DNA of 32,000 nt from Thiomicrorhabdus sediminis. GTDB lineage: Bacteria > Pseudomonadota > Gammaproteobacteria > Thiomicrospirales > Thiomicrospiraceae. The first letter of the stretch is position 1. Every line of letters begins with the position of its first letter. Location: contig NZ_CP040602.1 of NCBI RefSeq assembly GCF_005885815.1, positions 45,630 through 77,629 on the forward strand, given 5' to 3'. The notes under the pieces were generated by a model. The model was not told the DNA's origin and made no database searches. It worked only from the letters and a program-made list of their open reading frames with translations. The position numbers were made by a program, and so were the translations under genes. Shown here in pieces: positions 6,797 to 30,298 of this stretch.

Positions 6797-6808
6797 CCAA
6801 AGATAAAC

Positions 6809-14412: not shown

Positions 14413-16488
14413 ATGGGCATATCAATGACAGTAGATTCACAAGCAGCAATCAACAATCCTTTTCTATCAGGCAGTCATTTTCCGGAATTTGATAAGTTTC
14501 ACGTGGAACATATCAGACCGGCGATGGAGTTTTTATTGGCCAATAGCAAAAATAAAGTCGAGCAATTGGTAGCTGATGAGAGCCGTCCTACCTGGCAAAA
14601 CTTTATTGAGCCGTTGGAAGAAATTGATAACCTTTTCGAAAAAGTCTGGGGGCCCATCGGCCATTTGGATGCCACCATGAATAGTGATTCATGGCATGAA
14701 GCTTATAATGATTGTCTCCAGCAAGTGACCCAATACCATACCGAAATGGGACAAAATGCAGGGCTTTATAAGAAGTTCAAAGCATTGTACGAGTCGGGTG
14801 AATTCAACCAGTATTCGATTGCGCAAAAGAAAGTGATCGAAAATGCATTGCGTAACTTTGAATTAAGCGGTATTGGTTTGCCGGCAGAACAGCAGGCCGA
14901 GTTCAAGCAATTACGTGCCAACCTGTCAAACAACAGTAGTCAATTTGCCAACAATGTTTTGAAATCAACCCAATCCTGGTTCAAGCATATTGAGGACGAC
15001 AAGATTTTATCGGGTATTCCTGAATCATCGATGGGGCTGTTACAACAGTTAGCCGAGCAAAGAGAATTGGATGGTTGGTGTGTCACACTTGACTTTCCAT
15101 CCTATTTGGCGGTTATGACTCATGCTGACAATAGATCATTGCGTGAAGAGGTATATAAGGCCTTCAGTACACGTGCCTCTAATATGGCTTTAGACATAAG
15201 TTTTGATAACTCTGAGTTGATTGAACGGATTCGAGCCGACCGTCATAAAATTTCCGCTTTACTGAATTTTAGTAACTACGCCGAATATTCTTTGGCTACA
15301 AAAATGGCTGAATCGACAGAGCAGGTGCTACAGTTCTTAAAAGATTTAGCAGCTAAATCCAAACCTCAGGCAGAACAAGAGTTAGATAATTTACAAAAAT
15401 TTGCGGCTGACAATTTAGATTTGCATGATTTAGAGCCTTGGGATATCACCTATGCATCAGAGAAGCTTAAAAATGCTTCTTTGTCTCTTTCACAGGAAAC
15501 CTTGCGACCATTTTTCCCGGTCGAAAGAGTATTGGATGGATTGTTTAGCATCACAAAGACATTGTTTGATATTCAAATCAAACAGACGGATTCTGTCGCC
15601 GTCTGGCATAAAGATGTACGCTTTTTTGAATTGAAAGATAGACATGGCGGAGTCATCGGTCATTTCTATCTGGATCTTTATGCACGTGAGAACAAAAGAG
15701 GTGGAGCCTGGATGGATTCAGCCATCACACGATGGAAACATCCACAAGGGCAGTTGCAGACACCTGTGGCATATTTGGTTTGTAATTTCACCCCGCCAGT
15801 GGGAGACAAACCAGCTTGTCTAACCCATGATGAAGTCACCACTTTATTCCATGAATTTGGTCATGGCATTCACCATCTGTTTACCAAAATGGAGCAGCTC
15901 GATGTATCTGGAATCAGCGGTGTGCCATGGGATGCGGTTGAGCTGCCATCCCAATTTATGGAAAATTTCTGTTGGGAAAGAGAGGGCCTCGATCTTATTT
16001 CCTCTCATATTGAAACAGGTGAAAGCTTGACTGATGATTTGTTTGAAGCTTTGAAAAAGGGTCGTAAATTCCAGTCGGCGATGATGATGTTGCGTCAGAT
16101 TGAATTCGCATTGATTGACTTTGAAATGCACACCTTCTATGATCCAAACACTCCGGAAGATATCCTAGAGTTGGCGAATCGAATCCGTAATCAAGTAGCG
16201 GTAATAAAGCCGCCTGCCTATGGTCGAATGCTGCATAGCTTCAGTCATATTTTTGCCGGTGGTTATGCTGCCGGTTATTACAGCTATAAATGGGCTGAGG
16301 TGCTATCTGCAGATGCGTTCAGTCTGTTTGAAGAAACCGGCGTATTGAATGCAGATACCGGGGCAAAGTTCAGAAACACTATTCTAGCTGCTGGAGGCTC
16401 AATTGATCCTATGGAGCTGTTTAAACAGTTCAGAGGGCGTGAACCCCAAATCGATGCTCTACTTCGCCATAGTGGTATTGCTGCTTGA
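14413..16488 (+). CDS. prlC: Oligopeptidase A (M3 family zinc metallopeptidase)
   Basis: HEFGHGIHH zinc motif, M3A family length and conserved C-terminus (YYSYKWAEVLSADAF). The likely start is the ATG at 14425 (MTVDSQ). Confidence 0.92.
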   Translation: MGISMTVDSQAAINNPFLSGSHFPEFDKFHVEHIRPAMEFLLANSKNKVEQLVADESRPTWQNFIEPLEEIDNLFEKVWGPIGHLDATMNSDSWHEAYNDCLQQVTQYHTEMGQNAGLYKKFKALYESGEFNQYSIAQKKVIENALRNFELSGIGLPAEQQAEFKQLRANLSNNSSQFANNVLKSTQSWFKHIEDDKILSGIPESSMGLLQQLAEQRELDGWCVTLDFPSYLAVMTHADNRSLREEVYKAFSTRASNMALDISFDNSELIERIRADRHKISALLNFSNYAEYSLATKMAESTEQVLQFLKDLAAKSKPQAEQELDNLQKFAADNLDLHDLEPWDITYASEKLKNASLSLSQETLRPFFPVERVLDGLFSITKTLFDIQIKQTDSVAVWHKDVRFFELKDRHGGVIGHFYLDLYARENKRGGAWMDSAITRWKHPQGQLQTPVAYLVCNFTPPVGDKPACLTHDEVTTLFHEFGHGIHHLFTKMEQLDVSGISGVPWDAVELPSQFMENFCWEREGLDLISSHIETGESLTDDLFEALKKGRKFQSAMMMLRQIEFALIDFEMHTFYDPNTPEDILELANRIRNQVAVIKPPAYGRMLHSFSHIFAGGYAAGYYSYKWAEVLSADAFSLFEETGVLNADTGAKFRNTILAAGGSIDPMELFKQFRGREPQIDALLRHSGIAA

Positions 16489-16541
16489 TATAAACATGAG
16501 AAAAGTAGTCAGCTAAAAATAAAATTGGATTATAGTTTTGG

Positions 16542-16567
16542 AAAGCCAACTTTTGCTGGCTTTTTTT
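16542..16567 (+). terminator. Rho-independent terminator of prlC
   Basis: AAAGCCA-acttttgc-TGGCTTT followed by a run of T. Confidence 0.55.
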
Positions 16568-16614
16568 GTCTGTGATGATCAATCCTTAAAGTATGATTGG
16601 CTAAATTGAGATAT

Positions 16615-16647
16615 AAAAAAACCCTTACTTTCATTCGAAAGTAAGGG
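16615..16647 (-). terminator. Rho-independent terminator of the DsrE-like/porin operon
   Basis: Perfect 11-bp stem CCCTTACTTTC / GAAAGTAAGGG with a 4-nt loop. On the minus strand it is followed by T7. Confidence 0.75.
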
Positions 16648-16714
16648 TAAAAAACGGCTAGCAAATTCTGGGTTCGCTATCAACCGTAGCAACGAAAATG
16701 GGTTTTTTAAGAAA

Positions 16715-18007
16715 TTAGAAAATCATCATTAGCTGCGCAGATAGGCGGTCGTCTAATGCCGTAGCAACTAATGCAGGATTTTGCGCAGCTGTATAATTAG
16801 GAGCTTTTTGATCACGCATTTCATAGTTCAAACGAACAGATGTTTTCTTATTGAAGAAATATTGCGCACCTAAAGTAGTAGTTCTAAATTCACGAAGGTT
16901 ATTAGGATCTTCAGTCCCTCTATCCAAAGCGTCATAACGAATATTAAGCTCAAGGTTAGGTTTAATGCGGTAACCTAGATCGATTTGATATGCGGTTGCT
17001 TTTTCATCTGTTTGAACAGAGAACTTTGCACCATCAGCAGGAGTTGCTCCGGCGGTTGTACCACCAAAAATCATACCATCAGCAGTGAAGTATTCCGCGG
17101 CTGCACGGTATTTTCCATCAAAGTATGTCATACCAACACCTGTACGGGTACGGTCATAATCTGCCCCATTATAGGTGCGTTTACCATTTTGGTTCCATGC
17201 ATAGAATTTCATTCCATGTCGACGCGGTCCTTTAGAATCACCAAAGATTTTTTCGGTAGAAAGGTATAGATAAGTGTCTTTTGATTCATTATCATCGGTG
17301 AATGCTAATCCATTACCATTACCTAGCATAAGCGCATAGGAAGTTTCCCAGTCGCCATTTCTGAAAGCATCAAAAACCTGAATACCAGTATCACGGGCTG
17401 CAAAGGCAGGGTCTGTACGTTCCCCTGTTGTTGGATCGAACTTCTTCTCAATTAATAATTGATCGGTTCCTGTTGTGAAGTTTACATAGTTGAAAACAGG
17501 AATACCTTTAAAGGATTCTTCAGAACCTGGTGTCTTAAATAGACCTACACGAACTCTTGCACCGTCAATTTTATTGATAGTAACACTAGCATCGGTTAAT
17601 TGGCCTTGAGAACCAGAGTTACCTGTAGTAATACCATTGTTACCTAGTTCCATCATTAAGAAGTAATTCACATCTTTATCTAATGGAAAGTTAGCACCAC
17701 GAACACCAATACGTGCACGTTTAATATTGAATCCGCTAGAGGTTTTTAGGTCAGGTGCCATTTGGTTAAAAGCAGCTTTTTTACCAGAGTATCCTGCTGC
17801 ACCACCAACAAGTGTTGGTAGTTTTGTATCATTTGTTTGTTGATAATCTACTTGAGCAAAACCCCAAACCTTGGCACGCGGTGCCTGGTTGGGTTTTTCA
17901 GTTCCTTGAAGCATTAGCCAGTTGGCTGCATTGGCTTGTGGTACGGCTAGAGCGCCCGCTAGGGCTAGTAAAATACCGGCTTTTGTTGCTTTTAATTTAA
18001 GTTTCAT
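16715..18007 (-). CDS. Outer-membrane porin, OprO/OprP (phosphate/anion-selective porin) like
   Basis: Signal peptide MKLKLKATKAGILLALAGALAVPQANA, alternating beta-strand pattern and terminal Phe (LMMIF). The segment FNIKRARIGVRGAN...LTDASVTI resembles the Porin_O_P family. Confidence 0.7.
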   Translation of the reverse strand: MKLKLKATKAGILLALAGALAVPQANAANWLMLQGTEKPNQAPRAKVWGFAQVDYQQTNDTKLPTLVGGAAGYSGKKAAFNQMAPDLKTSSGFNIKRARIGVRGANFPLDKDVNYFLMMELGNNGITTGNSGSQGQLTDASVTINKIDGARVRVGLFKTPGSEESFKGIPVFNYVNFTTGTDQLLIEKKFDPTTGERTDPAFAARDTGIQVFDAFRNGDWETSYALMLGNGNGLAFTDDNESKDTYLYLSTEKIFGDSKGPRRHGMKFYAWNQNGKRTYNGADYDRTRTGVGMTYFDGKYRAAAEYFTADGMIFGGTTAGATPADGAKFSVQTDEKATAYQIDLGYRIKPNLELNIRYDALDRGTEDPNNLREFRTTTLGAQYFFNKKTSVRLNYEMRDQKAPNYTAAQNPALVATALDDRLSAQLMMIF

Positions 18008-18054
18008 AAGATTCCTCTTAAATGCTGTCTAAATATATTTAGTTATTTGTTTGA

Positions 18055-18543
18055 CTATGGGCGTAGGTAAACAAACCCTTGTTGCTGAAGATGTGCTAGT
18101 TCTGCAACACCGCTGGCAACAATATCTTCTTTGGTAGCGTCATATAGATCTCTATCCACGTTAACGTTGCGGCCTTTTAGCGTGTTGGCGCAGACATTAA
18201 ATTTCACACCTTGCATTTTCAGCTTATCGATCTTTTGGGACATGGTTTGATCGGCATTCGCATGTTTGAACTTAGGTACATTCGTTAATGCTTCAGGCTT
18301 TAGAATCAAAGACAAACCGTTACCGTGCATGACCACACGTAAATCCAAGTTATCAGCACCTACGGCATTGATATGGTTTTGAATATTGCGCAGTGTTGAT
18401 GACTGCTTCTTAGCATTGTCATAATTGATGTGGTAAACCACTTTTTGCTTACCGTAAGCATTGTCGTTGGCTTGGACATTGCCACCTGCAAAAGCAAGTG
18501 AGACAAACAAAAAAGCTTTAAGGGTATTGAATAGTATTTTCAT
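18055..18543 (-). CDS. Secreted DsrE/DsrF-like (COG1416-type) family protein, copy A
   Basis: Signal peptide ending VQA. The core is KVVYHINYDN...LRVVMHGNG...GVKFNVCANTL...VASGVAELAHLQQQGFVYLRP. It is a paralogue of 18592-19041. Confidence 0.6.
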   Translation of the reverse strand: MKILFNTLKAFLFVSLAFAGGNVQANDNAYGKQKVVYHINYDNAKKQSSTLRNIQNHINAVGADNLDLRVVMHGNGLSLILKPEALTNVPKFKHANADQTMSQKIDKLKMQGVKFNVCANTLKGRNVNVDRDLYDATKEDIVASGVAELAHLQQQGFVYLRP

Positions 18544-18591
18544 AATGACCTCTTTTTATTGGACTTATACGGGTTGTTGTCGGTTTGCTTT

Positions 18592-19041
18592 TTATGGCTT
18601 AAGGACTTGCCACCCTGCGGCATTAAGCTGAAGAATGCGAGCCGCACCAGCCGGTACAATGGTTGCACCTTCCATAACGTCAGGTTTCTTGCCTAATTTT
18701 TTGCCGAAATTACCAAGCGTATTGGCGCAGGCTGAAAAACGCACACCGGCTTCCATCATCGGTTTGATACGTTTGGTGTTTACATTGCCGTCGAGTAGAA
18801 GACGGACACCAGGACCGAATGCAACGATTTCAATATCCAAATCTGCGCCGTAATGCTTCATAAGATTATTGGCAACATTCAAAACAAGAGTTTGCTTGAA
18901 AGGGTCTCTGTCACTGATCTGCAAAACAACCTTATTTTTTGCAAAGGTATCAGGGATTGTTGGTTCTGGGACTTCGGCAATTGCTGTATTGAGCATAAAG
19001 ATGCCTAATAACAAGACAATGCAATTTTTGATTTTTAACAT
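18592..19041 (-). CDS. Secreted DsrE/DsrF-like (COG1416-type) family protein, copy B
   Basis: Signal peptide ending AIA. The core is KVVLQISDRD...IEIVAFGPG...GVRFSACANTL...VPAGAARILQLNAAGWQVLKP. Confidence 0.6.
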   Translation of the reverse strand: MLKIKNCIVLLLGIFMLNTAIAEVPEPTIPDTFAKNKVVLQISDRDPFKQTLVLNVANNLMKHYGADLDIEIVAFGPGVRLLLDGNVNTKRIKPMMEAGVRFSACANTLGNFGKKLGKKPDVMEGATIVPAGAARILQLNAAGWQVLKP

Positions 19042-19090
19042 AAATTTTCCTCTTTGCTGGATCCCGAATTTACATCGGCTTCACTGGTAA

Positions 19091-19116
19091 TAACGAACCA
19101 GCTGGAAATTTATTCC
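19091..19116 (-). promoter_or_regulatory. ECF-type promoter candidate for the DsrE-like/porin operon
   Basis: On the minus strand GGAAT-N16-CGTTA, about 50 nt upstream of the start at 19041. This resembles the generic ECF GGAAC-N16/17-CGT pattern. Confidence 0.25.
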
Positions 19117-19189
19117 ATATTTTTGCAGCAAAGGTTTTTATGTCTAGAACAGCTTGTTTTATTTAAGGATTTGCTTATGTTTTTTTAGT

Positions 19190-19218
19190 TTTACAAAAGG
19201 TGAAAATTTCATTACTAT
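19190..19218 (+). promoter_or_regulatory. Sigma70-type promoter candidate for the ECF sigma gene
   Basis: TTTACA (19190-19195), 17-nt spacer, TACTAT (19213-19218), 28 nt upstream of the ATG. Confidence 0.3.
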
Positions 19219-19245
19219 CGAAAAAAAACTATTAATTGGGTTCTT

Positions 19246-19821
19246 ATGATTTTCAACAGCAAAGTCGCTGATCTGTTTTGTGCAGCAAAAGAAAAGAAGC
19301 GTTTGAACGATATCCTAGAAAAACGATATAGTCGTCTATATCGATTGGCCTACGCTTGGTGTCATCAAAGAGTGATGGCTGAAGATTTGGTTCAGGATAC
19401 TTTTTTAAAGGCATTGGAAAACCGCAATGATCTGTCTAGTTTAGACCATCTAGATGCCTGGCTTGCTAAAATAATGCACAATTTATTTTTGGATATTATG
19501 CGCACAAACAAGCGTTGGCAGTGGGCTGATGAAAATGAAATAGACGAACTCTATGCGCAGGCATGTAATGAAACGACCCTAATCGCTGCTCAGACTACCG
19601 AATGTATATGTAAGGCGATGGCCTCTCTGCCTTTTGAACAGAGAGAAGCCATCGCTTTAGCTGATATTCAGGGGTTTACCTATCAGGAAATTTCCGAAAT
19701 CACCGATACACCGATTGGAACCATTATGAGCCGTATTTCACGTGGGCGAGAAAACCTAGCGAAACGACTGCAGCAGCTAGAAAATACAGAACAAAAAAAG
19801 ATTATCCCATTAAGAGGATAG
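19246..19821 (+). CDS. ECF (group 4) RNA polymerase sigma-70 factor
   Basis: Region 2 is AEDLVQDTFLKALEN...WLAKIMHNLFLD. Region 4 is REAIALADIQGFTYQEISEITDTPIGTIMSRISRGRENL. Confidence 0.9.
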   Translation: MIFNSKVADLFCAAKEKKRLNDILEKRYSRLYRLAYAWCHQRVMAEDLVQDTFLKALENRNDLSSLDHLDAWLAKIMHNLFLDIMRTNKRWQWADENEIDELYAQACNETTLIAAQTTECICKAMASLPFEQREAIALADIQGFTYQEISEITDTPIGTIMSRISRGRENLAKRLQQLENTEQKKIIPLRG

Positions 19822-19825
19822 AGAA

Positions 19826-20518
19826 ATGAAAAATAGAATAGAAAATTATCAGTTACACGCCTATTTAGATGGCGAATTAACACATGAGGAATGCCTCGAG
19901 ATTGAGCAGGCATTGAAAGAAGATGCCGAATTACGTTTTAGATTGGAAAAGTTCAGTACCCTGAAATCTGATGTGAAAAAAGCTTACTTGAATTTACCAA
20001 TTGAACAATATGTTGCTACGCCTAAAGAGAAAAAAAGCAATCTTAAAGATGGTTATTTCAATATTGCCGCGTCATTGTTTTTGGGTGTTATGATTGGTGC
20101 CGGCTTGATTACCTATTCGGTTGAGCCTAATGTGATGAATTCAGCTTTGGTGGAGCAAAACCAAAGCAACAATCGATTTTTAGTGCATATTGATACCAAT
20201 GATATCGAAAAGCAGCATGCAGCCTTGTTGCAGATCGAGCAGATTTTTGTCGAATCGACCGATAAGGTGCAGGTTGATTTGGTTTCCAACAGTACAGGAA
20301 TCGAGATGTTGGATAAAAATAATCCTGCCACTGAAGAGTTGCAGGGTTTATTAAAACGTTTTGATGGGTTGACAGTGTATGCTTGTCAAAGAGCGCTAGA
20401 AAGAGCCCAAAAGGCTGGCAAGCCAATTGAACTGATTCCTGAAGCGGTATTCGATCGTCCGGCGATTGATCGTCTAGCTGAGCGTCTGACCTCTGGCTGG
20501 AAATACATCAAAATCTAA
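19826..20518 (+). CDS. Single-pass membrane anti-sigma factor with an extracytoplasmic DsrE-like domain
   Basis: The start lies 4 nt after the sigma stop, with an AGGA SD. The N-terminus is anti-sigma-like (LHAYLDGELTHEECLEIEQAL) but lacks the full HxxxCxxC motif. One TM helix (YFNIAASLFLGVMIGAGLITYSV). The C-terminal 120 aa align with the two neighbouring secreted proteins. Confidence 0.7.
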   Translation: MKNRIENYQLHAYLDGELTHEECLEIEQALKEDAELRFRLEKFSTLKSDVKKAYLNLPIEQYVATPKEKKSNLKDGYFNIAASLFLGVMIGAGLITYSVEPNVMNSALVEQNQSNNRFLVHIDTNDIEKQHAALLQIEQIFVESTDKVQVDLVSNSTGIEMLDKNNPATEELQGLLKRFDGLTVYACQRALERAQKAGKPIELIPEAVFDRPAIDRLAERLTSGWKYIKI

Positions 20519-20568
20519 ATTTTTTTCTGGCTTAGGGTATGCCGTCTTAAGCCAATAAGCGGTAACCC

Positions 20569-21897
20569 TTGATGAGCCATTCTCCCACTTCCTTTGCTGA
20601 TGTTTTTCATCAACCGAATTACAAATCCCTATTCGCCGTTCAATTTCTTGGCGCCTTCAATGACAATTTGTTTAAAAACGCTCTGGTTATCTTGATCACT
20701 TTTAAGCTCAGTCAACAAATGACCGAGACAGGACTAATGATTACTCTGGCAGCAGGTTTGTTTATTTTGCCATTCTTCCTTTTTTCGGCAATGGCGGGGC
20801 AGTTGGCAGATAAGTACCCGAAAGCCTTGCTTATTAAAAAGATCAAGCTGGCCGAAGTCTTGATTATGCTGATAGGTGGTTTGGCTTTGCTTAACCAGGA
20901 CTTATGGTTACTGTTTTTCACACTGTTTTTAATGGGTACCCAGTCGGCTTTTTTTGGCCCGATCAAATACTCTATTTTGCCGGAAATCATGCCAGAGAAT
21001 CACCTGGTCAAAGCCAATGGCATATTTAGTGGTTCGACTTTTATTGCTATTTTGATCGGTACGATTTTTGGTGGCATTGGCATTATGCTGCCGGATGGAG
21101 AGCTGATTATGGCTAGTGCGGTAATACTGGTAGCCGGTATCGGTTATGGCTTCAGTCTTTTTTTATATTCCGATCAAACCAAAAACGGTGATATAAAAAT
21201 CGACTACAACCCCTTGCAAAGTACTTGGCAGGTTATTCAAGCCACCCGGGATTTCAAATTGGCGCGCTTTGCGGTCTATGCAATATCTTGGTTCTGGTTT
21301 ATCGGCGCAGTCTTGCTTAGCCAGATTCCGGCGCTGGTTAAATATGAATTATTTGCCGATGATAATGTTGTAGTTCTGTTTTTAACCCTTTTTTCTGTTG
21401 GTATCGCCATTGGTTCGACATTGGTCGCTAGGCAATCGGATTTTATCAGTTTGCGTTGGCACTGGGTCTGGTTGGCATCAATGTCCTTGTGTTTGCTGCT
21501 GACAGTGGTTTCAATTCAAGCGACAGATTTTGCGGATTTACAAAAATCGCTCAGCGTTTCACGTGAAACATTCTTCACCATTGAGCAGTTTATTGCCATT
21601 TATCCGCTTAATCTCACCATGCTTTTTTTGGCCTTGTTAGCCATTTTGGGCGGTGCTTATATCGTGCCGCTTTATACTTTGCTGCAGACACAAACTCCTG
21701 AGTTCGCCAGGGCACGTATGGTAGCGGTAAACAATATTGTTAATTCGTTTTTGATGGTACTTTCGGCAGTATTGATCATGATCGGGTTTGCCGTTAGCCT
21801 GAGCTTGTTGAATATGCTGTTGATTTTAGCGGGGCTTAATTTATTAGTTGCCTGGCTGGTGTTTGGTTATCGACATAGTAAAAATTTTATACAATAG
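20569..21897 (+). CDS. lplT: Lysophospholipid transporter LplT (MFS)
   Basis: MFS protein directly upstream of aas, as in the E. coli lplT-aas operon. The N-terminus is FAVQFLGAFNDNLFKNAL. The track start is a TTG; the ATG at 20572 is more likely. Confidence 0.8.
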   Translation: MMSHSPTSFADVFHQPNYKSLFAVQFLGAFNDNLFKNALVILITFKLSQQMTETGLMITLAAGLFILPFFLFSAMAGQLADKYPKALLIKKIKLAEVLIMLIGGLALLNQDLWLLFFTLFLMGTQSAFFGPIKYSILPEIMPENHLVKANGIFSGSTFIAILIGTIFGGIGIMLPDGELIMASAVILVAGIGYGFSLFLYSDQTKNGDIKIDYNPLQSTWQVIQATRDFKLARFAVYAISWFWFIGAVLLSQIPALVKYELFADDNVVVLFLTLFSVGIAIGSTLVARQSDFISLRWHWVWLASMSLCLLLTVVSIQATDFADLQKSLSVSRETFFTIEQFIAIYPLNLTMLFLALLAILGGAYIVPLYTLLQTQTPEFARARMVAVNNIVNSFLMVLSAVLIMIGFAVSLSLLNMLLILAGLNLLVAWLVFGYRHSKNFIQ

Positions 21898-21923: not shown

Positions 21924-24089
21924 ATGAAAAGCTTATTAAAACTGTTTGTCAAAGGCTTGTTCAAGCTGTGTTATCGAGTTGAAGTCAAAGGACTGGAAAA
22001 CTACCAGGCCGCTGAAAAAAGTGGCCGCCCCTTATTGATTATCGCCAACCATGTTTCCTTATTGGATGGCCCTTTACTGGACCTGTTTATTCCCGGTAAT
22101 ACCGCCTTTATGGTCGATAAATCTCATACCCAAAAATGGTTTGAGCGATTTATTCTCTCCATGAGCGAATACTTCACCGTTGATACCCATAGTCCTTATG
22201 CCGCCAAACACATGATTGAGGAGCTCAATAAAGGCAAGCAGTGCATGATCTTTCCTGAGGGAAGGATTTCCACTACCGGTGCCTTAATGAAGGTCTACGA
22301 AGGTACCGGACTGGTTGCCGATAAAACTCAAGCGGCGGTGCTCAGCGTGCATATTGGCGGTGCCGAATTGAGCCGCTTGTCTTATCTAGACGGCACTAAA
22401 TCGGGATTTATTAAACAGCAGTGGTTTCCTAAAATCACCATAAGCATTCAACCGCATACACAAATTAGCCATCCGCAAAACCTTAAAGGGACAGAAAAAC
22501 ACAAGTTCTATAAACAGGCGGTATTCAAGTTACTGCGGGATTCGAGTTTTTTTGCTGCCGAAACCAATCATTCGTTGTATGCAGCGTTAATTAAGGCCAA
22601 ACAAAAATATCACAGTAAGGATGTCTGCATAGAAGACATCAATGGTCAGAACCTTAGTCTGAAAAAATTGACTTTGGCATCGATCATTCTTGGTAGAGCT
22701 TTGAAGAAAACGCTCAAAAAAGAAAAGCGTGTCGGTTTGATGTTGCCGAACGTATCCGGTATGCCGGCGACCTTTTTCGCTTTGCAGGCATATGGTTATG
22801 TGCCGGCTATGATCAATTTCACCGCCGGTAAGGCGGCTATTGAATCGGCTTGTGTCACCGCAGAGCTGCAAACCATTGTCACTTCACGCCGCTTTATCGA
22901 AGCGTTTGAGATTGAAGCGTTGGTCGAGTCCTTGGAAGACAAGGTTCGCTTTGTTTATCTTGAAGATATTCGTAGTGAAATCGGTATTTGGCAAAAAATC
23001 AGCGGGCTTTTAACACCGGCGAAATCCTTACCGGGTTATAAGACCGAGACGCATTTCGAGGCTGTCGTGTTGTTCACCTCAGGCTCTGAAGGGGCGCCGA
23101 AGGGTGTGGTGCTATCGCATAACAATGTCACCAGCAACATTGAACAGGCGATATCGATGCTTAATTTGATTCCGACAGAAAAGGTTTTCAATGCGTTACC
23201 GACGTTCCACTGTTTTGGCTTGACGGCAGGTCTGCTTTTGCCGGTGTTAAAAGGTGCCAAGACCTTTATGTATCCATCACCGGTGCATTATGCGGTAGTG
23301 CCGGAAATGGTCTATCAGAGCAATGCCAAATATATTTTCGGTACCGATACATTCTATAGCGGTTATGCGCGCAAAGCGGACTCTTACGACTTCTTCAATT
23401 TGCGTATGATGATTGCTGGCGCAGAGCGTTTGCGCCCAGAGACTCGAGAGCTTTATGCGAATAAATACCATCAACCGATTTATGAAGGCTATGGAGTTAC
23501 CGAAACCACCCCTATTTTGGCGGTGAATATCCCAACCGCCTATAAACACGGTTCGGTAGGTCAGTTTGTACCCGGTATTGAATACCATTTGGAAGAAGTG
23601 CCAGGTATCAAGGATGCTGGCAGATTGTTGGTTAAAGGCCCAAATGTCATGTTGGGTTACCTGATGCCCGGTGAACCGGGTGTATTACAGCCGCCAACCG
23701 ATGGATGGCACGATACCGGCGATATTGTTCAGGTCGATGAAGAAGGTTATGTCTGGATCAAAGGCCGCGCCAAGCGTTTCGCAAAGATTGGCGGTGAAAT
23801 GGTGTCATTGACCGCGGTAGAGCGTTATATCAATAAGGCAAGCCCGGAAGGTCATCACGTGGTTGTCGCCGTGCCAGATGAACGTAAGGGCGAGAAGCTG
23901 GTGCTGGTGACCGATGATGAAGGCCTGAGCAGAAAAACGGTCAGTGATGCGGCAAGATTGGCGGAAGTAGCGGAATTGATGATTCCGAAAACGGTTATTC
24001 TGGTTGAATCGATTCCGGTATTGGGTACCGGTAAAACCAATTATCCGGAAGTACAGAAATTGGCCGAGCAGCATTCCGGCGGCAGTTGA
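21924..24089 (+). CDS. aas: Bifunctional 2-acylglycerophosphoethanolamine acyltransferase / acyl-ACP synthetase
   Basis: 721 aa. N-terminal PlsC-type acyltransferase (NHVSLLDG, FPEGRISTTG). C-terminal adenylate-forming domain (FTSGSEGAPKGVVLSH, YGVTET, GDIV...GR.KRFAKIGGEMVS). Confidence 0.92.
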   Translation: MKSLLKLFVKGLFKLCYRVEVKGLENYQAAEKSGRPLLIIANHVSLLDGPLLDLFIPGNTAFMVDKSHTQKWFERFILSMSEYFTVDTHSPYAAKHMIEELNKGKQCMIFPEGRISTTGALMKVYEGTGLVADKTQAAVLSVHIGGAELSRLSYLDGTKSGFIKQQWFPKITISIQPHTQISHPQNLKGTEKHKFYKQAVFKLLRDSSFFAAETNHSLYAALIKAKQKYHSKDVCIEDINGQNLSLKKLTLASIILGRALKKTLKKEKRVGLMLPNVSGMPATFFALQAYGYVPAMINFTAGKAAIESACVTAELQTIVTSRRFIEAFEIEALVESLEDKVRFVYLEDIRSEIGIWQKISGLLTPAKSLPGYKTETHFEAVVLFTSGSEGAPKGVVLSHNNVTSNIEQAISMLNLIPTEKVFNALPTFHCFGLTAGLLLPVLKGAKTFMYPSPVHYAVVPEMVYQSNAKYIFGTDTFYSGYARKADSYDFFNLRMMIAGAERLRPETRELYANKYHQPIYEGYGVTETTPILAVNIPTAYKHGSVGQFVPGIEYHLEEVPGIKDAGRLLVKGPNVMLGYLMPGEPGVLQPPTDGWHDTGDIVQVDEEGYVWIKGRAKRFAKIGGEMVSLTAVERYINKASPEGHHVVVAVPDERKGEKLVLVTDDEGLSRKTVSDAARLAEVAELMIPKTVILVESIPVLGTGKTNYPEVQKLAEQHSGGS

Positions 24090-24107: not shown

Positions 24108-24147
24108 GAAAACCTCCTCTGCTTATGGCTTTGGAGGTTTTTTTATT
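24108..24147. terminator. Bidirectional rho-independent terminator between convergent aas and batD
   Basis: AAAACCTCC-15 nt-GGAGGTTTT stem, with T-runs following on both strands. It overlaps the batD stop codon. Confidence 0.7.
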
Positions 24148-25795
24148 TTGGTCTATAAAGTGCGGTGAGAGCCGAATCCGTTTTGGCGGAATGATCGGTT
24201 TTATTGAAAGCGTTCATCTCTTTTTGGATACTGGCAATGCAGTCATCCGCCAATTCTGCATTTTGATAAAGATGCTTTTCCAAAGCCAGAAGTTGTTCCT
24301 GCAATAAGGGGTTTTCGATGTCATGTAATGATTCGATGTGCTGCTCAAGACGCAGTTTCTGCAAGGTTTGATGGTAGAACTGTGGCAGAGATTCAACCGG
24401 CAGTGCTTTCACTTCAGGCAAAGTAGTATGCGCTTGTATGCTTGTAGATAAGGTTTTAAGCGCGTTTAAACGCTGTTGTAATCGATAAACCCAAAAAAGC
24501 GTGCTCAGCCATAACACAACCATAATTAAGCTGATGTAGAACCAATAACCGCTGTCGGAGTTGTGCTCGCTAACAACCGTTGTTGTTTGGCCATCAATTG
24601 GCGTTGTTGGGGCGATTGAATTTAATGCCGCTAGCACTTCAATATTCTGTGCCGCCAATTCAGTCACCTGAAAATGCTGGGATTCGGTATTCCACCAGCG
24701 AATCGATATTTTCGGAACCGTGATGGTTCCTGTTGCTGTCGGTACTAAGGCTAGTTTAAGGGTTTTTATCGCCGTCACACCATTGCTATTGAGCTGCTGA
24801 CCATCCTGTTCGCTATCGATATAAACCTTTAAATCCTTGCCGCCATCAATATTTATTTTCGGCAGCTGGGTTGATTTCAAACCTTCGACACGAATAGTGA
24901 TTTCGCGACCGATACTATCGCCCAAATGAACCTGATCAACAGAATTTAACCAATTTTGATCAATCCTGACCTGTCTAGCCGGCAACCAGGGGGGAGTGTT
25001 TTGCGGAATAGGCAATACCTTGATTTTGATGGCTTCGGCACTGGCTTGGATGCCTTTTTGGCGGCCACCGAGACTGAGCATTCCGGTAAACATAGGTCCG
25101 GGAATAGTTAAAACCCCACTTTGTTGGGGAAACAACGCATAACGCCATTCGTAAACGGTATAAGCTTGACCATTGATGGTTTTGCCATAGACCGACTGCT
25201 CTTTTAAGGTTTCCGATTGGGCATTGGCGAAATTGGGCGGACGAATATTGCCGTTTAAAAGCGTGCCTTGCTGGTAGAAACGCAAGGTATAGATAACTTG
25301 CTGTTGGACAAATACCTCGGACAAGTCGGTTTTGGCTTCAAGAAAATAAGGTTTGACTCCGGCTTTATAGCTCGGCTTGGTCACCTCAATCGGGTAGGGT
25401 TTGCTTTTAACGCCTTTGAGTTCAAAAGGTGGGATCATCAATTTACCTGTCTGTTTCGCCACCAGACGCAATTGCCAACGGGTGGTGGAACTGAAATCAC
25501 CATTAATAATCTGTATTTGATTGCTTTGCTGGCGGCTCAATACATCGAATTGGTCCTGCAAAATAGAGGTATCCAGACTGGCATTGGCGATTTGAAAGTC
25601 TGTTTCCACTATGACAGTGATAATGTCGCTCAACTCAACCTTGTCGCGGTCGGCTTTAACGCTGATGGAGTCGGCAATGGCACTATTAGCGGCCAAGCAT
25701 AAAACACCAAGCAGACAAATTTGCATAAAACAATTGCTGAGCCGCTTGGTTGAGGAAAACAAAAAAAACTCTGTTGTACGGTAGCTATTTACCAT
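24143..25795 (-). CDS. batD: BatD family protein (oxygen-tolerance protein)
   Basis: 550 aa. N-terminal signal-like segment (MQICLLGVLCLAANSAIA), a large beta-rich ectodomain, one C-terminal TM (YWFYISLIMVVLWLSTLFWVY) and a cytoplasmic tail. It is the last gene of the MoxR/Bat operon. The start overlaps the upstream stop (ATGGTAA); an alternative start lies at 25726. Confidence 0.7.
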   Translation of the reverse strand: MVNSYRTTEFFLFSSTKRLSNCFMQICLLGVLCLAANSAIADSISVKADRDKVELSDIITVIVETDFQIANASLDTSILQDQFDVLSRQQSNQIQIINGDFSSTTRWQLRLVAKQTGKLMIPPFELKGVKSKPYPIEVTKPSYKAGVKPYFLEAKTDLSEVFVQQQVIYTLRFYQQGTLLNGNIRPPNFANAQSETLKEQSVYGKTINGQAYTVYEWRYALFPQQSGVLTIPGPMFTGMLSLGGRQKGIQASAEAIKIKVLPIPQNTPPWLPARQVRIDQNWLNSVDQVHLGDSIGREITIRVEGLKSTQLPKINIDGGKDLKVYIDSEQDGQQLNSNGVTAIKTLKLALVPTATGTITVPKISIRWWNTESQHFQVTELAAQNIEVLAALNSIAPTTPIDGQTTTVVSEHNSDSGYWFYISLIMVVLWLSTLFWVYRLQQRLNALKTLSTSIQAHTTLPEVKALPVESLPQFYHQTLQKLRLEQHIESLHDIENPLLQEQLLALEKHLYQNAELADDCIASIQKEMNAFNKTDHSAKTDSALTALYRPK

Positions 25796-27741
25796 GGTTT
25801 ATCCGTTGTTGTCTGATGGTTCTGATTCTGTTGATATTGATATTCGAATTTACGTTTTAGAAACAGTCCGGGTTGATCTGGAATCTGCTGTAACCAGTTA
25901 CGCTGCGCCTGTTGCTGTTCGGTTAGTGGCTCGTCTGAATCGAATTGAGCAGCCTTATTATCGCTTGGGTATTTTTGTGATTCTTTAGCAGTTTTATCAG
26001 TTAATCGAGGTTTTTTGTCGCTATCTGCATTATTTTGTTGCGAACTGCCTTGATCTTGTTTGTTGATATCGGCGTCTTTTTGTTTGCTTTCTTGTGCTTG
26101 TTGGGAAGCACCGGCTTTATCCTCCGCAGACGGATTGGCTTTTGATTTAGGATCGGCCGACTGTTTATCTCTGTTTTGAGCGTTTTGCTTTTGTTGTTGC
26201 CCTTCGTGCTTGGTGTCTTTAGTTTCTGTTGTTGGAGAAGCTTGCTCGGTCTTTTCGCTGCTTTCAGTTTTAGCGGATTCTTGTGGGTGTTGTTTGCTAC
26301 GGTTCTGATTTTGTTCGGCTTTGTTTCGCTGTTGATTAAGTTGCTCAACCACGGCCAGGTTGTCTTTGGCTTGCTGCCAATCAGGTTTGAGTTGCAATGC
26401 CTGTTTATAGGCTTTTATCGCTTCTTCAAGTTGGTTATCCATCGCCAGGGCATTGCCCAAATTATAAAACCCTTGGGCACTCTTATCGGTAGCAAAAAGT
26501 TGAGCCGCTTCTTTATATTTGCCTAGCTTATATAAAGCGCTGGCGCGCCATTGAGGGTCGGTAAATTGTGCTTCGGCAGCGCTATACTGGTTGTTTTGCC
26601 AAGCTTGGTAACCGAGTTGATCGGGTGATTTGAACAGATCGCTCCATACCGTTTCATTAGCTTGAGCATAGCTTGGTTGTGGTTGCAGGGTTAAAAGTGG
26701 TGAAATGAAAAACAGGCTGAATAAAATGCCGCGACGATAAAACAGAGCCACCGCTGGAATAATCAAAAACAGTAAAAAGATGCCGACATCCAATGGATGT
26801 TGTACCGATTTCCCCGGCTCTTTTTCATTATGGGTTGCGCCCTTATCAAATGGCGGTAACAAGCTGCCGGTTTGCTGTTTGGCGGCATTAAACTGGGTCC
26901 AGTTGAATGTCACACCTCGTTGATTGGCGACTTGCACCAATTGCCTAAAATTATCCAGTGGCAGGGTGGGATGCACTAATTGACCGCTATTGTCTTTAAG
27001 CAAGCCGTAATTGGGAATTTGTACTACGCCACCGGCTTGTGTGCCAACGGTCATTAGACTAATGCTGTAATCATGTTTTGCCAACCATTCGCTGATTGGT
27101 TGGATTTGGTCGTTTTCCAGATCATCGGTGATCCAGATAATATGCCCTTGCGTGACCTGATTACCCTTTAACAGTTTAGCCGCCAGTTGCAAAGCTGATA
27201 GAGGATCCGAGCCATAGCCCGGCATCAGCAAGGGATCGAGTGATGGCAATAGGTTGAGCAGGGTCGCGTTGTCTTCGGAGATCGGACTGATCGTATGCGC
27301 CGAACCGGCATAAGCCACCATCCCGGTGGCATATTCAGGGTGTTGTTTTAACAGGTCGGTAAGCAGATATTTAATGCGCTGCAAGCGCTCTGGCGGTATA
27401 TCGTCCGCCATCATCGACAGCGATAAATCCAAAACAATCACGTTACCTTGATGAGACTTTTTTGCCGGAATCTCTATTGCTTTAAGCCACGGGCCTGATA
27501 GGGCAAATATCATTAGAATCCAGACAAAAGCGAGCAAGGCGAGAATCATTTTCTGATTCAGGCTAGGTCCTTGTTGTGCGCTATTTGCTAGCAGTAGCTT
27601 TTGGAACTTGGCGGCAATAATCTGGTTCCAGGCACCGTTTTGATGTTGTTTTTGCCAGCCTAGATAAAGCAATAGCAACATCGGCAATAGAGCCAAAAAC
27701 CACCAAGGACGTAAAAAGTGCAATTGATTAAGGATTTCCAT
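25789..27741 (-). CDS. batB: VWA domain protein fused to TPR repeats and a low-complexity tail (BatB-BatC like)
   Basis: N-terminal TM, VWA MIDAS motif VLDLSLSM, internal TM pair, TPR repeats (YKLGKYKEAAQLF...YNLGNALAMDNQLEEAIKAYKQALQLKPD), then about 150 aa rich in Q/K/E/S/D. Confidence 0.8.
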   Translation of the reverse strand: MEILNQLHFLRPWWFLALLPMLLLLYLGWQKQHQNGAWNQIIAAKFQKLLLANSAQQGPSLNQKMILALLAFVWILMIFALSGPWLKAIEIPAKKSHQGNVIVLDLSLSMMADDIPPERLQRIKYLLTDLLKQHPEYATGMVAYAGSAHTISPISEDNATLLNLLPSLDPLLMPGYGSDPLSALQLAAKLLKGNQVTQGHIIWITDDLENDQIQPISEWLAKHDYSISLMTVGTQAGGVVQIPNYGLLKDNSGQLVHPTLPLDNFRQLVQVANQRGVTFNWTQFNAAKQQTGSLLPPFDKGATHNEKEPGKSVQHPLDVGIFLLFLIIPAVALFYRRGILFSLFFISPLLTLQPQPSYAQANETVWSDLFKSPDQLGYQAWQNNQYSAAEAQFTDPQWRASALYKLGKYKEAAQLFATDKSAQGFYNLGNALAMDNQLEEAIKAYKQALQLKPDWQQAKDNLAVVEQLNQQRNKAEQNQNRSKQHPQESAKTESSEKTEQASPTTETKDTKHEGQQQKQNAQNRDKQSADPKSKANPSAEDKAGASQQAQESKQKDADINKQDQGSSQQNNADSDKKPRLTDKTAKESQKYPSDNKAAQFDSDEPLTEQQQAQRNWLQQIPDQPGLFLKRKFEYQYQQNQNHQTTTDKPW

Positions 27742-28769: not shown

Positions 28770-29317
28770 TATTGGTGATGTCCTTTAATCCATTTGTAGG
28801 CATAGTCATACCAGATCTGCACCGCATTTTTTACCGAAAGAGTTTGCTGATTGGCTATTTGTATTTCGGTTCGCTCCTGATAACCTAGCATCATAATCGC
28901 ATTGAGATTATCCGGTTGGGCAATGAACTTGCAGCGGTTCTGCAAAAAATCGAGCCAGGCTTGATCTATCAATGCCGCGGTGGCATTACGTCCATAAGCG
29001 CTGAGTGCGACCTGCTTTACCAATTGGTTGATTTCAGCGATTTTTTCGTTGGCGCTAAGATGTTCGGCCTGTTGAATGACCTGTAATTTTTTTAGTGCCT
29101 GATGGCGGTAGCGATTGCGGCGTTTCTGCTCGAGGAAATACCAAGTCACACCGACAATCGCCATTATCAGAGCGAAAATCAGTAGCCAGGAACTATAAGA
29201 AAGCGGCCACCAGCCGACAGGGTCGGGCAATTGAATATCGTGCAGTTGTTGGCCAAGCGCTGCACTTAGCTGAGTCGCATCATTCAGGTTATTCGGGTTG
29301 TCCATTACATTGGGCAC
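28769..29317 (-). CDS. DUF4381 domain-containing membrane protein
   Basis: 182 aa. Contains LHDIQLPDPVGWWPLSYSSW followed by one TM. It sits between DUF58 and BatA, as in Bat operons. Confidence 0.6.
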   Translation of the reverse strand: MPNVMDNPNNLNDATQLSAALGQQLHDIQLPDPVGWWPLSYSSWLLIFALIMAIVGVTWYFLEQKRRNRYRHQALKKLQVIQQAEHLSANEKIAEINQLVKQVALSAYGRNATAALIDQAWLDFLQNRCKFIAQPDNLNAIMMLGYQERTEIQIANQQTLSVKNAVQIWYDYAYKWIKGHHQ

Positions 29318-29332
29318 AAGACTTCGCCTCCA

Positions 29333-30268: not shown

Positions 30269-30298
30269 AACTAAGCATCATCTCAAGATAGCGCTGAA

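Follow-up and report, generated by a model that had tools for sequence, protein, structure and literature searches.

The window, as the whole 32,000-nucleotide stretch of Thiomicrorhabdus sediminis DNA analysed here is called, carries a divergent gene unit that represents a genuine and so far uncharacterised variant of ECF26-like signalling. With its DsrE-like sensor, this variant probably senses a periplasmic sulfur species. The reading preferred here, which we hold to be rather likely, is that an ECF26-like sigma/anti-sigma pair, whose single-cysteine sensor is of the MTH1491/COG1416 branch, turns on a dsrE-porin operon in response to reactive sulfur species.

Organization of the locus

In T. 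sediminis the genes of an ECF sigma factor (positions 19246-19821, plus strand; 191 aa; Pfam domains Sigma70_r2, r4_2 and Sigma70_ECF) and of its anti-sigma factor (19826-20518, plus strand; N-terminal zf-HC2 anti-sigma motif in Pfam) are divergent from a three-gene operon on the minus strand. The operon begins with dsrE149 (18592-19041), coding for a DsrE-like protein of 149 aa (PF02635, E = 2.5e-5), and continues with dsrE162 (18055-18543; 162 aa, DsrE-like, PF02635 E = 1.5e-11) and a porin gene (16715-18007; 430 aa, Pfam Porin_O_P, PF07396). All five reading frames were recovered at the same coordinates as in the first-pass annotation, which had also correctly described intergenic gaps of 48 and 47 nt in the operon, AAGAGG-type Shine-Dalgarno sequences (AAGAGG precedes all three start codons) and an operon interior in which no terminator-like hairpin is found. 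The intrinsic terminator of the operon (16621-16648, minus strand) has a stem of 12 bp, 5 of them GC pairs, a loop of 4 nt and then a TTTTTTT run, and lies 66 nt downstream of the porin stop codon; this is essentially the single strong terminator previously placed at 16615-16647. A hydrophobic, signal-peptide-like N-terminal segment is present in each of the three minus-strand products, as had been proposed for the two DsrE-like ones.

Anti-sigma factor and sensor domain

The cytoplasmic anti-sigma domain (residues 1-55; 19826-19990, plus strand) scores 24.3 bits against zf-HC2 (cut-off 22.2); D15 and L18 are invariant, C23 is not conserved, and the HxxxCxxC zinc motif is absent from this domain. 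A single transmembrane segment (residues 78-99; 20057-20122, plus strand), conserved as AASLFLG and the only strongly hydrophobic 19-residue window of the protein, separates it from the periplasmic DsrE-like sensor domain (residues 116-230; 20171-20515, plus strand). A Pfam search gave no DsrE match in this ectodomain. BLASTP aligned it end to end with the 149-aa protein (E = 1e-5), and profile-profile comparison with the secreted family by hhalign gave a probability of 88.8% (E = 2.5e-6, 111 columns). The structure of MTH1491 (PDB 1L1S) was matched by the profile of the anti-sigma family with E = 0.006, by that of the 149-aa family with E = 3.6e-14 and by a joint profile of sensor and secreted domains with E = 5e-25. 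The AlphaFold model of the sensor domain reached a pLDDT of 92.7 and a pTM of 0.84 from an alignment of 32 rows, 9 of them secreted DsrE-like sequences, which may favour the shared fold. Its top Foldseek match was 1L1S (TM 0.83/0.92, rmsd 1.3 Å), and the ten best matches all have the DsrE/YchN fold. BLASTP, hhalign, AlphaFold and Foldseek thus agree with the earlier suggestion of a third DsrE-like domain in the anti-sigma ectodomain, one paralogous to the proteins that the anti-sigma probably regulates.

Three sensor residues, His121 (codon 20186-20188), Asn155 (20288-20290) and Cys187 (20384-20386, all plus strand), are invariant in an alignment of 21 diverse family sequences, which share 22-58% identity with the window protein; in the model Cys187 opens a helix directly after strand b3. 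The family of DsrE-type anti-sigma factors is large: clustered at 50% identity, it yields 625 clusters at a limit of E <= 1e-3 and still 308 at E <= 1e-10. Almost all of its 150 best matches have a length of 215-263 aa and carry the domain C-terminally.

Secreted DsrE-like proteins and porin

The 162-aa and 149-aa types are paralogues (hhalign E = 1.5e-17). Homologues of the 149-aa protein number 1742, and each of the 21 family members aligned starts with a hydrophobic leader and has the invariant cysteine. Each periplasmic DsrE-like module, whether secreted or part of the sensor, has one cysteine, which is aligned across all three; in the mature secreted proteins it is Cys105 of dsrE149 (codon 18727-18729, minus strand) and Cys118 of dsrE162 (codon 18190-18192, minus strand). 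At the positions of the sensor's invariant His and Asn the secreted 149-aa type carries Gln and Phe, so that sensor and carrier may differ in what they bind or in how they bind it. The first-pass annotation had called the domains DsrE/COG1416-like and argued from the sulfur carriage of the DsrE/TusD family; the DsrE/YchN fold stands, but all three domains belong to the uncharacterised MTH1491/COG1416 branch, outside DsrE/TusD proper, so persulfide carriage can be suggested only by analogy. Sequence profiles did not connect canonical DsrE and TusD with the window domains, to which they are related by fold only (TM about 0.7).

The 430-aa product is an outer-membrane porin with a signal peptide and a distant member of Porin_O_P (33.5 bits, cut-off 20.9). 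It shares 40-67% identity with the module porins of eight other loci, a family with numerous invariant Arg and Lys positions. The earlier designation as an OprO/P-like, anion-selective porin is not borne out: the Pfam threshold is passed only weakly, and even the family profile detected no sequence similarity to solved porins in the PDB, OprP and OprO included.

Promoters and sigma factor

A predicted ECF-type promoter of the dsrE-porin operon (19092-19116, minus strand; -35 GGAAT at 19112-19116, -10 CGTT at 19092-19095) lies 50 nt upstream of the dsrE149 ATG. It is the one match to the motif in the 32-kb window, where 0.06 would be expected. When the intergenic regions are aligned, TGGAATAA is the longest stretch without any variation. 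The motif GGAAT-N16/17-CGT(T/C) is directed at dsrE149, 46-101 nt upstream, in 10 of the 11 loci with dsrE149 beside the pair; in L005 the -35 box is present, with no CGT at the expected spacing. In shuffled regions the fraction with a match was at most 0.005 per intergenic region. With the -35 box made stricter (GGAATWW), the motif has a single match in ten of the 17 loci scanned and two matches in another two, all of them in regions that flank the sigma gene.

The motif is also directed at the sigma gene in L040, L112, L114, L115, L118 and L120. In the window no ECF motif faces the sigma gene; a consensus scan instead predicts a sigma-70-like promoter (19190-19218, plus strand; TTTACA-N17-TACTAT), which is kept in L001, L003 and L004/L002. 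Between the two divergent promoters lies an AT-rich block (19120-19185), seen as conserved columns in an alignment of seven intergenic regions and accounted for by neither promoter.

By sequence, the dsrE-porin promoter motif agrees with the published ECF26 consensus of -35 GGAAT(A) and -10 CGTC/GT (PMC6180224, PMC6527743). The sigma factor of the window shares 30% identity (E = 1e-21) with Sinorhizobium meliloti RpoE6, a member of ECF26, the group that takes in the sulfite/thiosulfate-responsive RpoE4 and SigE (PMC3511301, PMC6180224, PMC6527743). In a neighbour-joining tree without support values, the window sigma falls with all 18 sigmas paired with DsrE-type anti-sigmas in one monophyletic clade, and its sister clade contains RpoE6. 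Promoter match and tree position classify the sigma as ECF26-like, which is not a formal ECF-group assignment. The first-pass annotation had recognised no characterised ECF group with a DsrE-like sensor or this gene combination; the sigma factor is not an orphan type, as its promoter fits the ECF26 consensus and it groups beside an ECF26 member.

Distribution and link to sox genes

The arrangement of dsrE149 and porin divergent from sigma and anti-sigma recurs in ten loci (the window, L001, L003, L005, L039, L040, L042, L043, L113 and L119) from at least four genera and distant GC-rich lineages, with differing flanking genes. This synteny, together with the conserved ECF-type promoter, supports the view that the five genes form one functional unit. 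One part of the first-pass proposal that has to be amended is its pair of DsrE-like genes: dsrE149 and the porin gene are the core, and dsrE162 is accessory, being found in the window, L001 and L043. In L116 a gene of the 162-aa type (59% identity) replaces dsrE149 and porin as the sole divergent partner of the regulators. The named hosts of the window-like module, Thiomicrorhabdus, Hydrogenovibrio, Thiomicrospira and Thiosulfativibrio, are sulfur oxidisers. L045, L112, L114 and L115, whose flanks are informative, have no adjacent DsrE, porin or sox gene. In L039, genes for cytochrome b561 and YceI adjoin the anti-sigma gene.

Two GC-rich loci, L118 and L120, have the sigma/anti-sigma pair embedded among sox genes, with no secreted DsrE-like gene beside it, and lend independent support to the sulfur connection made in the first-pass annotation. 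The order in L118 is a TsuA/YedE-like transporter, ECF promoter, sigma, anti-sigma (DsrE-like), soxY, soxZ, soxA, soxX and soxB. A gap of 27 nt containing GGAGG separates anti-sigma gene and soxY, the pair is co-transcribed with soxYZAXB, and SoxY, SoxZ, SoxA and SoxX exceed their NCBIfam equivalog cut-offs. In L120 the order is soxY (ending GGCGG), soxZ, a hairpin, ECF promoter, sigma and anti-sigma.

Comparison with known systems

The sigma/anti-sigma pairs RpoE4-EcfR4 (sorT) and RpoE1-EcfR1 of S. meliloti and SigE (sorAB) of Starkeya novella belong to ECF26 and control sulfite oxidation. They share with the window the promoter (-35 GGAAT(A), -10 CGTC/GT) and a small adjacent regulon coding for periplasmic sulfur-handling proteins. 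Autoregulation occurs in some members only (PMC3511301, PMC6180224, PMC6527743), and Starkeya sigE, like the window sigma gene, is without an ECF promoter. The sulfite systems differ in that their anti-sigmas have a COG5662/RsiW-like rather than a DsrE-like periplasmic domain, their targets are sulfite dehydrogenases and not DsrE-like carriers, porin or sox genes, and their hosts are alpha- and beta-proteobacteria.

DsrEFH, TusBCD and YchN have the same alpha/beta fold as the sensor (Foldseek TM 0.68-0.72 to 1JX7, 2HY5_A and 2D1P_A) and the conserved cysteine after the third strand, which is the active-cysteine position in DsrE and TusD. DsrEFH and TusBCD are cytoplasmic hetero-hexamers with DsrF/H or TusB/C that pass sulfur to DsrC or TusE, whereas the window domains are found in periplasmic proteins or in a membrane protein and have no F/H partners. 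Nearest to all three domains by sequence and fold are MTH1491 (PDB 1L1S) and ST0148 (PDB 2PD2), COG1416 proteins of unknown function and without a known regulatory role; unlike the window domains, these are archaeal and cytoplasmic, with neither signal peptide nor membrane anchor.

RseB-RseA-sigmaE and CpxP-CpxA are envelope systems in which the sensor is subject to feedback from a periplasmic protein of its own regulon, and the periplasmic products of the window regulon could exert a similar feedback. Unlike the DsrE-like proteins of the window, the accessory protein in those systems is not known to be paralogous to the sensor domain.

Alternative explanations

The invariant His121 and Cys187 could bind soft metals or react with oxidants, and the pair might accordingly sense general envelope thiol, oxidant or metal(loid) stress instead of a sulfur growth substrate, with a protective operon that buffers or excludes the toxic species. 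ECF26 subgroup 1 has been linked to catalase and cytochrome b561 (PMC7826278), the latter found with YceI in L039, and sulfur genes are absent around L112, L114 and L115. We nevertheless think this unlikely, since the pair lies within sox clusters in two loci, once in a transcript with soxYZAXB, the named hosts are obligate sulfur oxidisers, and the conserved module has no metal-efflux or detoxification genes. A similarly small chance is given to the secreted DsrE-like proteins being mainly regulators that form mixed MTH1491-type trimers with the sensor and set its stability, in the manner of RseB with RseA or CpxP with CpxA, the porin being the only true effector; this is compatible with the preferred reading and does not exclude it. 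The nearest structural relative, MTH1491, is a homotrimer (PMC5495134), the fold is common to sensor and secreted proteins from end to end, and in L116 the regulators face a secreted DsrE-like gene alone, with no porin gene. The 149-aa family, however, is far more conserved (51-77% identity) than the sensor domain (22-58%) over comparable spans, which fits a protein that has a substrate or partners of its own, and no such gene accompanies the pair in L118 and L120.

Import of phosphate or another non-sulfur anion, by a true OprO/P-type porin with the DsrE-like proteins as simple periplasmic binders, would fit the Porin_O_P match and the many invariant Arg and Lys residues. It is highly improbable, given a porin with no detectable similarity to OprP, OprO or other solved porins and a module linked to neither Pho-type regulation nor pst genes; it also leaves the invariant single cysteine of the three DsrE-like modules and the sox linkage unexplained. 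That the neighbourhood arose by chance and has no regulatory meaning can hardly be credited, as the arrangement is kept in ten loci with unrelated flanks and the oriented promoter, in its stricter -35 form, is confined to sigma-flanking regions; conservation and orientation of the promoter and the shuffle test reject it.

Proposed mechanism

Under the preferred reading of a sulfur-responsive ECF26-like pair, residues 1-55 of the anti-sigma would, judging from its architecture, hold the sigma at the membrane in the resting state. A periplasmic reactive sulfur species, possibly sulfane sulfur, polysulfide or a thiosulfate-type compound, would act on the His121/Asn155/Cys187 pocket, most likely by persulfide or thiosulfonate formation on Cys187. 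The anti-sigma would then be inactivated by proteolysis or conformational change, and the freed sigma would bring RNA polymerase to the conserved, putative target site GGAATAAA-N13-CGTT, 50 nt upstream of dsrE149. A single transcript of dsrE149, dsrE162 and porin would end at the terminator (16621-16648) and supply an outer-membrane channel together with one or two single-cysteine carriers, located in the periplasm and sharing the sensor's fold. These may take up, buffer or hand on the same sulfur species, for instance towards Sox, thereby exerting feedback on the sensor. The Thiomicrorhabdus sigma operon would be read from its sigma-70-type promoter without autoregulation; in other lineages the same ECF motif may also drive the sigma gene and, in at least one, soxYZAXB.

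The membrane sensor thus shares its fold with the secreted proteins under its predicted control, and since related switches sit within sox clusters, this switch may reveal how sulfur-oxidisers sense extracytoplasmic sulfur compounds.

Gene organization

The five open reading frames of the module lie exactly at the coordinates assigned to them by the first-pass annotation. On the minus strand the 149-aa DsrE-like gene (dsrE149, 18592-19041), the 162-aa DsrE-like gene (dsrE162, 18055-18543) and the porin gene (16715-18007) form one operon; on the plus strand the ECF sigma gene (19246-19821) is followed by the anti-sigma gene (19826-20518). The HMM searches proposed in that annotation were run, and Pfam recovers the porin (Porin_O_P), both secreted proteins (DsrE, PF02635), the sigma factor (Sigma70_r2, r4_2 and Sigma70_ECF) and, in the anti-sigma factor, the N-terminal zf-HC2 anti-sigma motif alone. 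The reported gaps of 48 and 47 nt within the operon were found, as was AAGAGG ahead of each of its start codons when the sequence was read. A hydrophobic leader begins each of the three minus-strand products, in line with the signal peptides proposed for them, and the strong terminator described after the operon is present as a 12-bp stem with a T-run (16621-16648, minus strand), the sole terminator-like site there. A scan of positions 16400-20700 found no Rfam family. An NCBI protein of T. sediminis, titled only 'zf-HC2 domain-containing protein', has the same sequence as the window anti-sigma factor (100% identity).

The interval between the anti-sigma stop codon (20518) and the next gene, 20519-20568, contains no terminator-like site. 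An MFS transporter gene (20569-21897) and an acyltransferase/AMP-binding fusion gene (21924-24089) follow as an LplT-Aas-like pair, and the order anti-sigma, MFS, acyltransferase/AMP-binding is kept in four of the compared loci (L001, L002, L003 and L043). Because no terminator was seen and the order is kept, it is possible that transcription from the sigma operon runs into these genes. A Bat/MoxR-type operon at 24143-31267 on the minus strand (BatD, VWA-TPR, VWA, DUF4381, DUF58 and MoxR AAA ATPase) is probably unrelated to the module; MoxR- and transglutaminase-type genes also occur near the DsrE-type sigma/anti-sigma pair of locus L114.

The secreted proteins and the porin

The 162- and 149-aa proteins score 44.9 and 24.9 bits against PF02635 (cut-off 22.7), and the former is a clear paralogue of the 149-aa type (hhalign E = 1.5e-17). 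The 149-aa protein has 1742 homologues; across the sampled lineages identity to the window protein is 51-77% with the Cys invariant, and all 21 aligned members of this type carry an N-terminal hydrophobic leader. An NCBIfam match of the 162-aa protein to XopAF (21 bits, cut-off 200) was dismissed as noise; neither the porin nor the 149-aa protein had any match in that search.

The porin had been described as OprO/P-like and anion-selective. Membership in Pfam PF07396 was confirmed (33.5 bits, cut-off 20.9, 339 of 370 profile positions covered); the closer likeness was not, as no match to OprP or OprO was obtained and PDB sequence searches with the single sequence and with a 9-sequence profile returned no solved porin at E ≤ 1. 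Because of this lack of similarity, anion selectivity is only a possibility, at which the many invariant Arg and Lys residues of the family hint.

The DsrE-like domain of the anti-sigma factor

[quoted passage not shown] Since residues 78-99 form its single hydrophobic span, the last ~130 residues should be periplasmic. The N-terminal domain's lone Cys, C23, is not conserved across the family, and a cytoplasmic redox switch is unlikely because the HxxxCxxC zinc motif is absent from the protein.

The periplasmic part, or ectodomain, had been interpreted as a third copy of the DsrE-like fold. Pfam is blind to this domain (no match of the anti-sigma factor to PF02635 above the gathering score; a weak precomputed match exists for the homologue P0304), yet BLASTP, profile, profile-profile and structure comparisons agree on it. 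The BLASTP alignment of the anti-sigma factor with the 149-aa protein (E = 1e-5) runs end to end and pairs the cysteines. PDB 1L1S (MTH1491, a COG1416 DsrE-like protein) is matched over positions 117-227 by a profile built from ten anti-sigma homologues (E = 0.006). When profiles of the ectodomain and of the secreted 149-aa family were compared, they aligned over 111 columns with a probability of 88.8% (E = 2.5e-6). Residues 108-230 were modeled by AlphaFold without templates, with pLDDT 92.7 and pTM 0.84; the underlying 32-row alignment took in nine secreted DsrE-like sequences and could bias the model toward the shared fold; the sequence comparisons that point to a third DsrE-like domain are independent of this mixed alignment. 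This deeper-alignment model replaced an earlier run on the full-length protein with 10 close homologues, which was poor (pLDDT 52). In a structure comparison of the kind called for by the first-pass annotation, the best PDB match of the model was 1L1S (TM 0.83/0.92, rmsd 1.3 Å), followed by 2PD2 and then by DsrE-like 3PNX, YchN, DsrE of DsrEFH and TusD. The DsrE/YchN fold is common to the ten best matches. All three DsrE-like domains of the module belong to the MTH1491/ST0148 branch, and canonical DsrE and TusD are reached from them by fold only.

Each periplasmic module contains exactly one Cys, and the three cysteines align; in the ectodomain model the residue lies right after strand 3, at the helix start. 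This sole Cys is invariant in each module and, by analogy with DsrE/TusD, is a candidate persulfide or thiosulfonate site. Across 21 aligned sequences from diverse members, D15 and L18 of the anti-sigma domain are invariant, as are six ectodomain residues: His121, Asn155, Gly158, Cys187, Trp225 and Tyr227. At the positions of the sensor's invariant His and Asn the 149-aa protein has Gln and Phe, and the 162-aa type has His at both. The DsrE/TusD relay is a cytoplasmic hetero-oligomer with DsrF/H or TusB/C that delivers sulfur to DsrC or TusE, whereas the window proteins have signal peptides or periplasmic topology; F/H-type partner genes were found neither in the window nor in any compared locus.

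Sigma factor and promoters

With about 190 aa and sigma2 and sigma4 domains only, the sigma factor is of the ECF type (group 4). Its domains score above the cut-offs (Sigma70_r2 47.7, Sigma70_r4_2 54.1 and Sigma70_ECF 28.3 bits), as does the whole protein against TIGR02937 (77.9, cut-off 42.9); all NCBIfam equivalogs stayed under cut-off. Group ECF26 includes RpoE1 and RpoE4 of S. meliloti and SigE of Starkeya (PMC6180224, PMC6527743). With RpoE6, an ECF26 member encoded on pSymA, the window sigma factor shares 30% identity (E = 1e-21). A neighbour-joining tree of 78 sigma factors, calculated without support values, unites all 18 partners of DsrE-type anti-sigma factors in one clade, sister to the clade with RpoE6. 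The ECF26 promoter consensus, -35 GGAAT(A) and -10 CGTC/GT (PMC6180224, PMC6527743), equals the motif found upstream of dsrE149. On the promoter match, and with RpoE6 identity and the tree as proxies for group assignment, the sigma factor is called ECF26-like. ECF26 anti-sigma factors have a COG5662/RsiW-like periplasmic domain (PMC3511301, PMC6180224), whereas that of the window family is DsrE-like.

The aligned intergenic regions have in common an invariant block, TGGAATAA, which read toward dsrE149 is GGAAT-N16/17-CGT(T/C), located 46-101 nt ahead of the gene's start. The motif faces dsrE149 in 10 of 11 loci with this gene (nine of the ten regions examined first, then L119), the exception being L005, where the -35 box alone is kept; for any one intergenic region a chance match has a probability of at most 0.005. 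The window site, GGAATAAATTTCCAGCTGGTTCGTT at 19092-19116 on the minus strand, is the single match in 32 kb (0.06 expected). With a stricter -35 box (GGAATWW) 17 loci of 1.6-32 kb each were scanned; ten have one site and two more have two, and none of the 17 has the motif outside the regions flanking the sigma gene.

In six loci (L040, L112, L114, L115, L118 and L120) the ECF motif is directed at the sigma gene, which implies autoregulation. The sigma operon of the Thiomicrorhabdus group has instead a conserved sigma-70-like promoter, TTTACA-N17-TACTAT, at 19190-19218. Starkeya SigE drives sorAB and not its own promoter (PMC6527743), and the window sigma factor appears to be alike in this respect. 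Between the ECF-type and sigma-70-like promoters, at ~19120-19185, the Thiomicrorhabdus, Thiomicrospira and Thiosulfativibrio loci have in common a conserved AT-rich block that neither promoter explains and that could serve as an UP element or bind a further regulator. GGAATA -35 boxes are often arranged back to back as inverted repeats, as in L112 (5335-5365, GAAATATTCCACGGCGGCATGGAATATTTC) and in the intergenic regions of L113, L116 and L040, and the window -35 box lies inside a near-palindrome, TGGAAATTTATTCCA, at 19103-19117. Such boxes may represent two divergent ECF promoters on one palindrome, or an operator.

Conservation and gene neighborhood

Conservation of the neighborhood, likewise proposed as a check, was found: the order anti-sigma<-sigma / dsrE149->porin recurs in nine further loci with unrelated flanks. 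These are a Thiotrichales MAG (L001), Thiomicrorhabdus sp. Milos-T2 (L003), Thiomicrospira sp. WB1 (L039), Thiosulfativibrio zosterae (L042), the metagenome contigs L040, L043, L113 and L119, and a GC-rich gammaproteobacterial MAG (L005) with identities of 48% (porin), 52% (DsrE), 36% (sigma) and 28% (anti-sigma). All named hosts of the window-like module are sulfur oxidizers. The 162-aa gene is accessory: it occurs in the window, L001 and L043, and L116 has a gene of this type (59% identical) as the sole divergent partner of the sigma/anti-sigma pair. No comparable partner gene adjoins the pair in L045, L112, L114 or L115.

In L045 the product of the divergent gene (649-2265, minus strand) is a secreted protein of 538 aa that has a D-rich acidic stretch and matches no Pfam family; it may be an alternative target of the DsrE-type regulator family. 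At the end of L043 (8538-8672), downstream of the aas-like gene, lies an extra dsrE149-like fragment (53% identity over 45 residues); the counterpart position in the window is occupied by the BatD-like gene. In L111, a contig that begins at the sigma gene, COX3-like, CbbQ/NorQ-like AAA, VWA (NorD-like) and COX1-like genes of haem-copper oxidase or NO-reductase type (2278-7306) are located downstream of the DsrE-type anti-sigma gene. In Thiomicrospira sp. WB1 cytochrome b561 (PF01292) and YceI genes (L039, 2146-3309) adjoin the anti-sigma gene; cytochrome b561/YceJ-type genes are reported neighbors or targets of ECF26 sigma factors (PMC7826278, PMC6180224).

When a profile of just the ectodomain was used for an exhaustive search, 625 clusters (50% identity) were retrieved at E ≤ 1e-3 and 308 at E ≤ 1e-10; almost all of the best 150 matches are 215-263 aa long with the domain C-terminal, the anti-sigma architecture. 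A word-indexed search with the single anti-sigma query gave 10 relatives only, a strong underestimate compared with these hundreds. The metagenome scan used the generic anti-sigma motif alone and delivered mostly unrelated anti-sigma factors (3 of 68 loci useful). L008 (Burkholderiaceae), found via the anti-sigma N-terminus, aligns over most of the anti-sigma length and was rejected as a member, its C-terminal domain being non-DsrE.

Some members of the family are labeled 'intracellular sulfur oxidation DsrE/DsrF family protein' by JGI. Literature searches found no paper describing DsrE-type anti-sigma factors or linking ECF or anti-sigma factors to DsrE; for COG1416 the matches were confined to a transcriptome study and to reports on genomes or plasmids, and the ECF re-classification paper nowhere mentions DsrE. 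The Hydrogenovibrio genome paper notes five dsrE homologues and says no more on them. A Thioalkalivibrio arsenite transcriptome with regulated porin and DsrE-like genes was judged unrelated, as the porin gene adjoins a TonB receptor gene and not a DsrE gene.

Linkage to sulfur oxidation

On contig L118 (64% GC) the order, all on one strand, is a TsuA/YedE-like transporter gene, GGAATAAATCGGCAGGTTGCCGCGTC, sigma, anti-sigma with DsrE-like domain, a 27-nt gap containing GGAGG, and then soxY, soxZ, soxA, soxX and soxB; SoxY, SoxZ, SoxA and SoxX score above their NCBIfam equivalog cut-offs. L120 has soxY (ending in GGCGG), soxZ, a hairpin, GGAATAAACCCTCTTTCATCGCCGTC, sigma and anti-sigma. From the gene order in these two loci, co-transcription of the pair with sox genes is predicted for at least one lineage. 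The YedE/YeeE (TsuA-like) family gene of L118 (97-1197, plus strand) lies directly upstream of the operon; the window encodes a 'Sulf_transp' membrane protein of this family at 5639-6796 on the plus strand, 13 kb from the module (PF04143, E = 1.3e-50). The gene may be a recurring partner, or its presence a coincidence.

Proposed mechanism and significance

The module probably acts as an ECF26-like switch in which the single-Cys periplasmic DsrE-like domain of the anti-sigma factor would detect a reactive sulfur species that probably modifies Cys187, whereupon the sigma factor would be set free. From the GGAAT/CGTT promoter the freed sigma factor would then transcribe the genes of an outer-membrane channel and of periplasmic carriers, one or two in number, that share the sensor's fold. 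These products would handle the same sulfur species and feed back on the sensor. Architecture, fold, conservation of the family and of the promoter, and the sox linkage are shown by the comparisons above; use of the promoter by this sigma factor, the nature of the signal, the Cys chemistry and the route of anti-sigma inactivation are inferred. The activation mechanism of ECF26 is itself still hypothetical (PMC6180224).

MTH1491 forms homotrimers (PMC5495134), so assemblies that mix the sensor with its secreted paralogues are a live alternative or addition. A further reading, which we consider rather unlikely, is a periplasmic sulfur relay for signaling: sulfane sulfur admitted by the porin would be loaded on the secreted carriers and passed to Cys187 directly or via mixed trimers, so that the loading of the carrier pool, and not free ligand, would set sigma activity, and the system would be the Sox master switch in some lineages. 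If true, this relay would be a persulfide counterpart of a phosphorelay.

The module is real, conserved and uncharacterized, and it merits experimental follow-up. Its hosts include the cultivable organisms Thiomicrorhabdus, Hydrogenovibrio and Thiomicrospira, and it provides a delimited sensor domain in which three residues are invariant, together with a predicted promoter and a small regulon of two or three genes for channel and carriers. In neutrophilic sulfur oxidizers, outer-membrane sulfur-transfer proteins still await experimental identification (PMC10045233). Linkage with soxYZAXB suggests that the Sox pathway is under ECF-based control, of which we know no earlier description. For the MTH1491/COG1416 branch, for which structures have been solved since 2002 and a function is lacking, the module would give the first functional handle.
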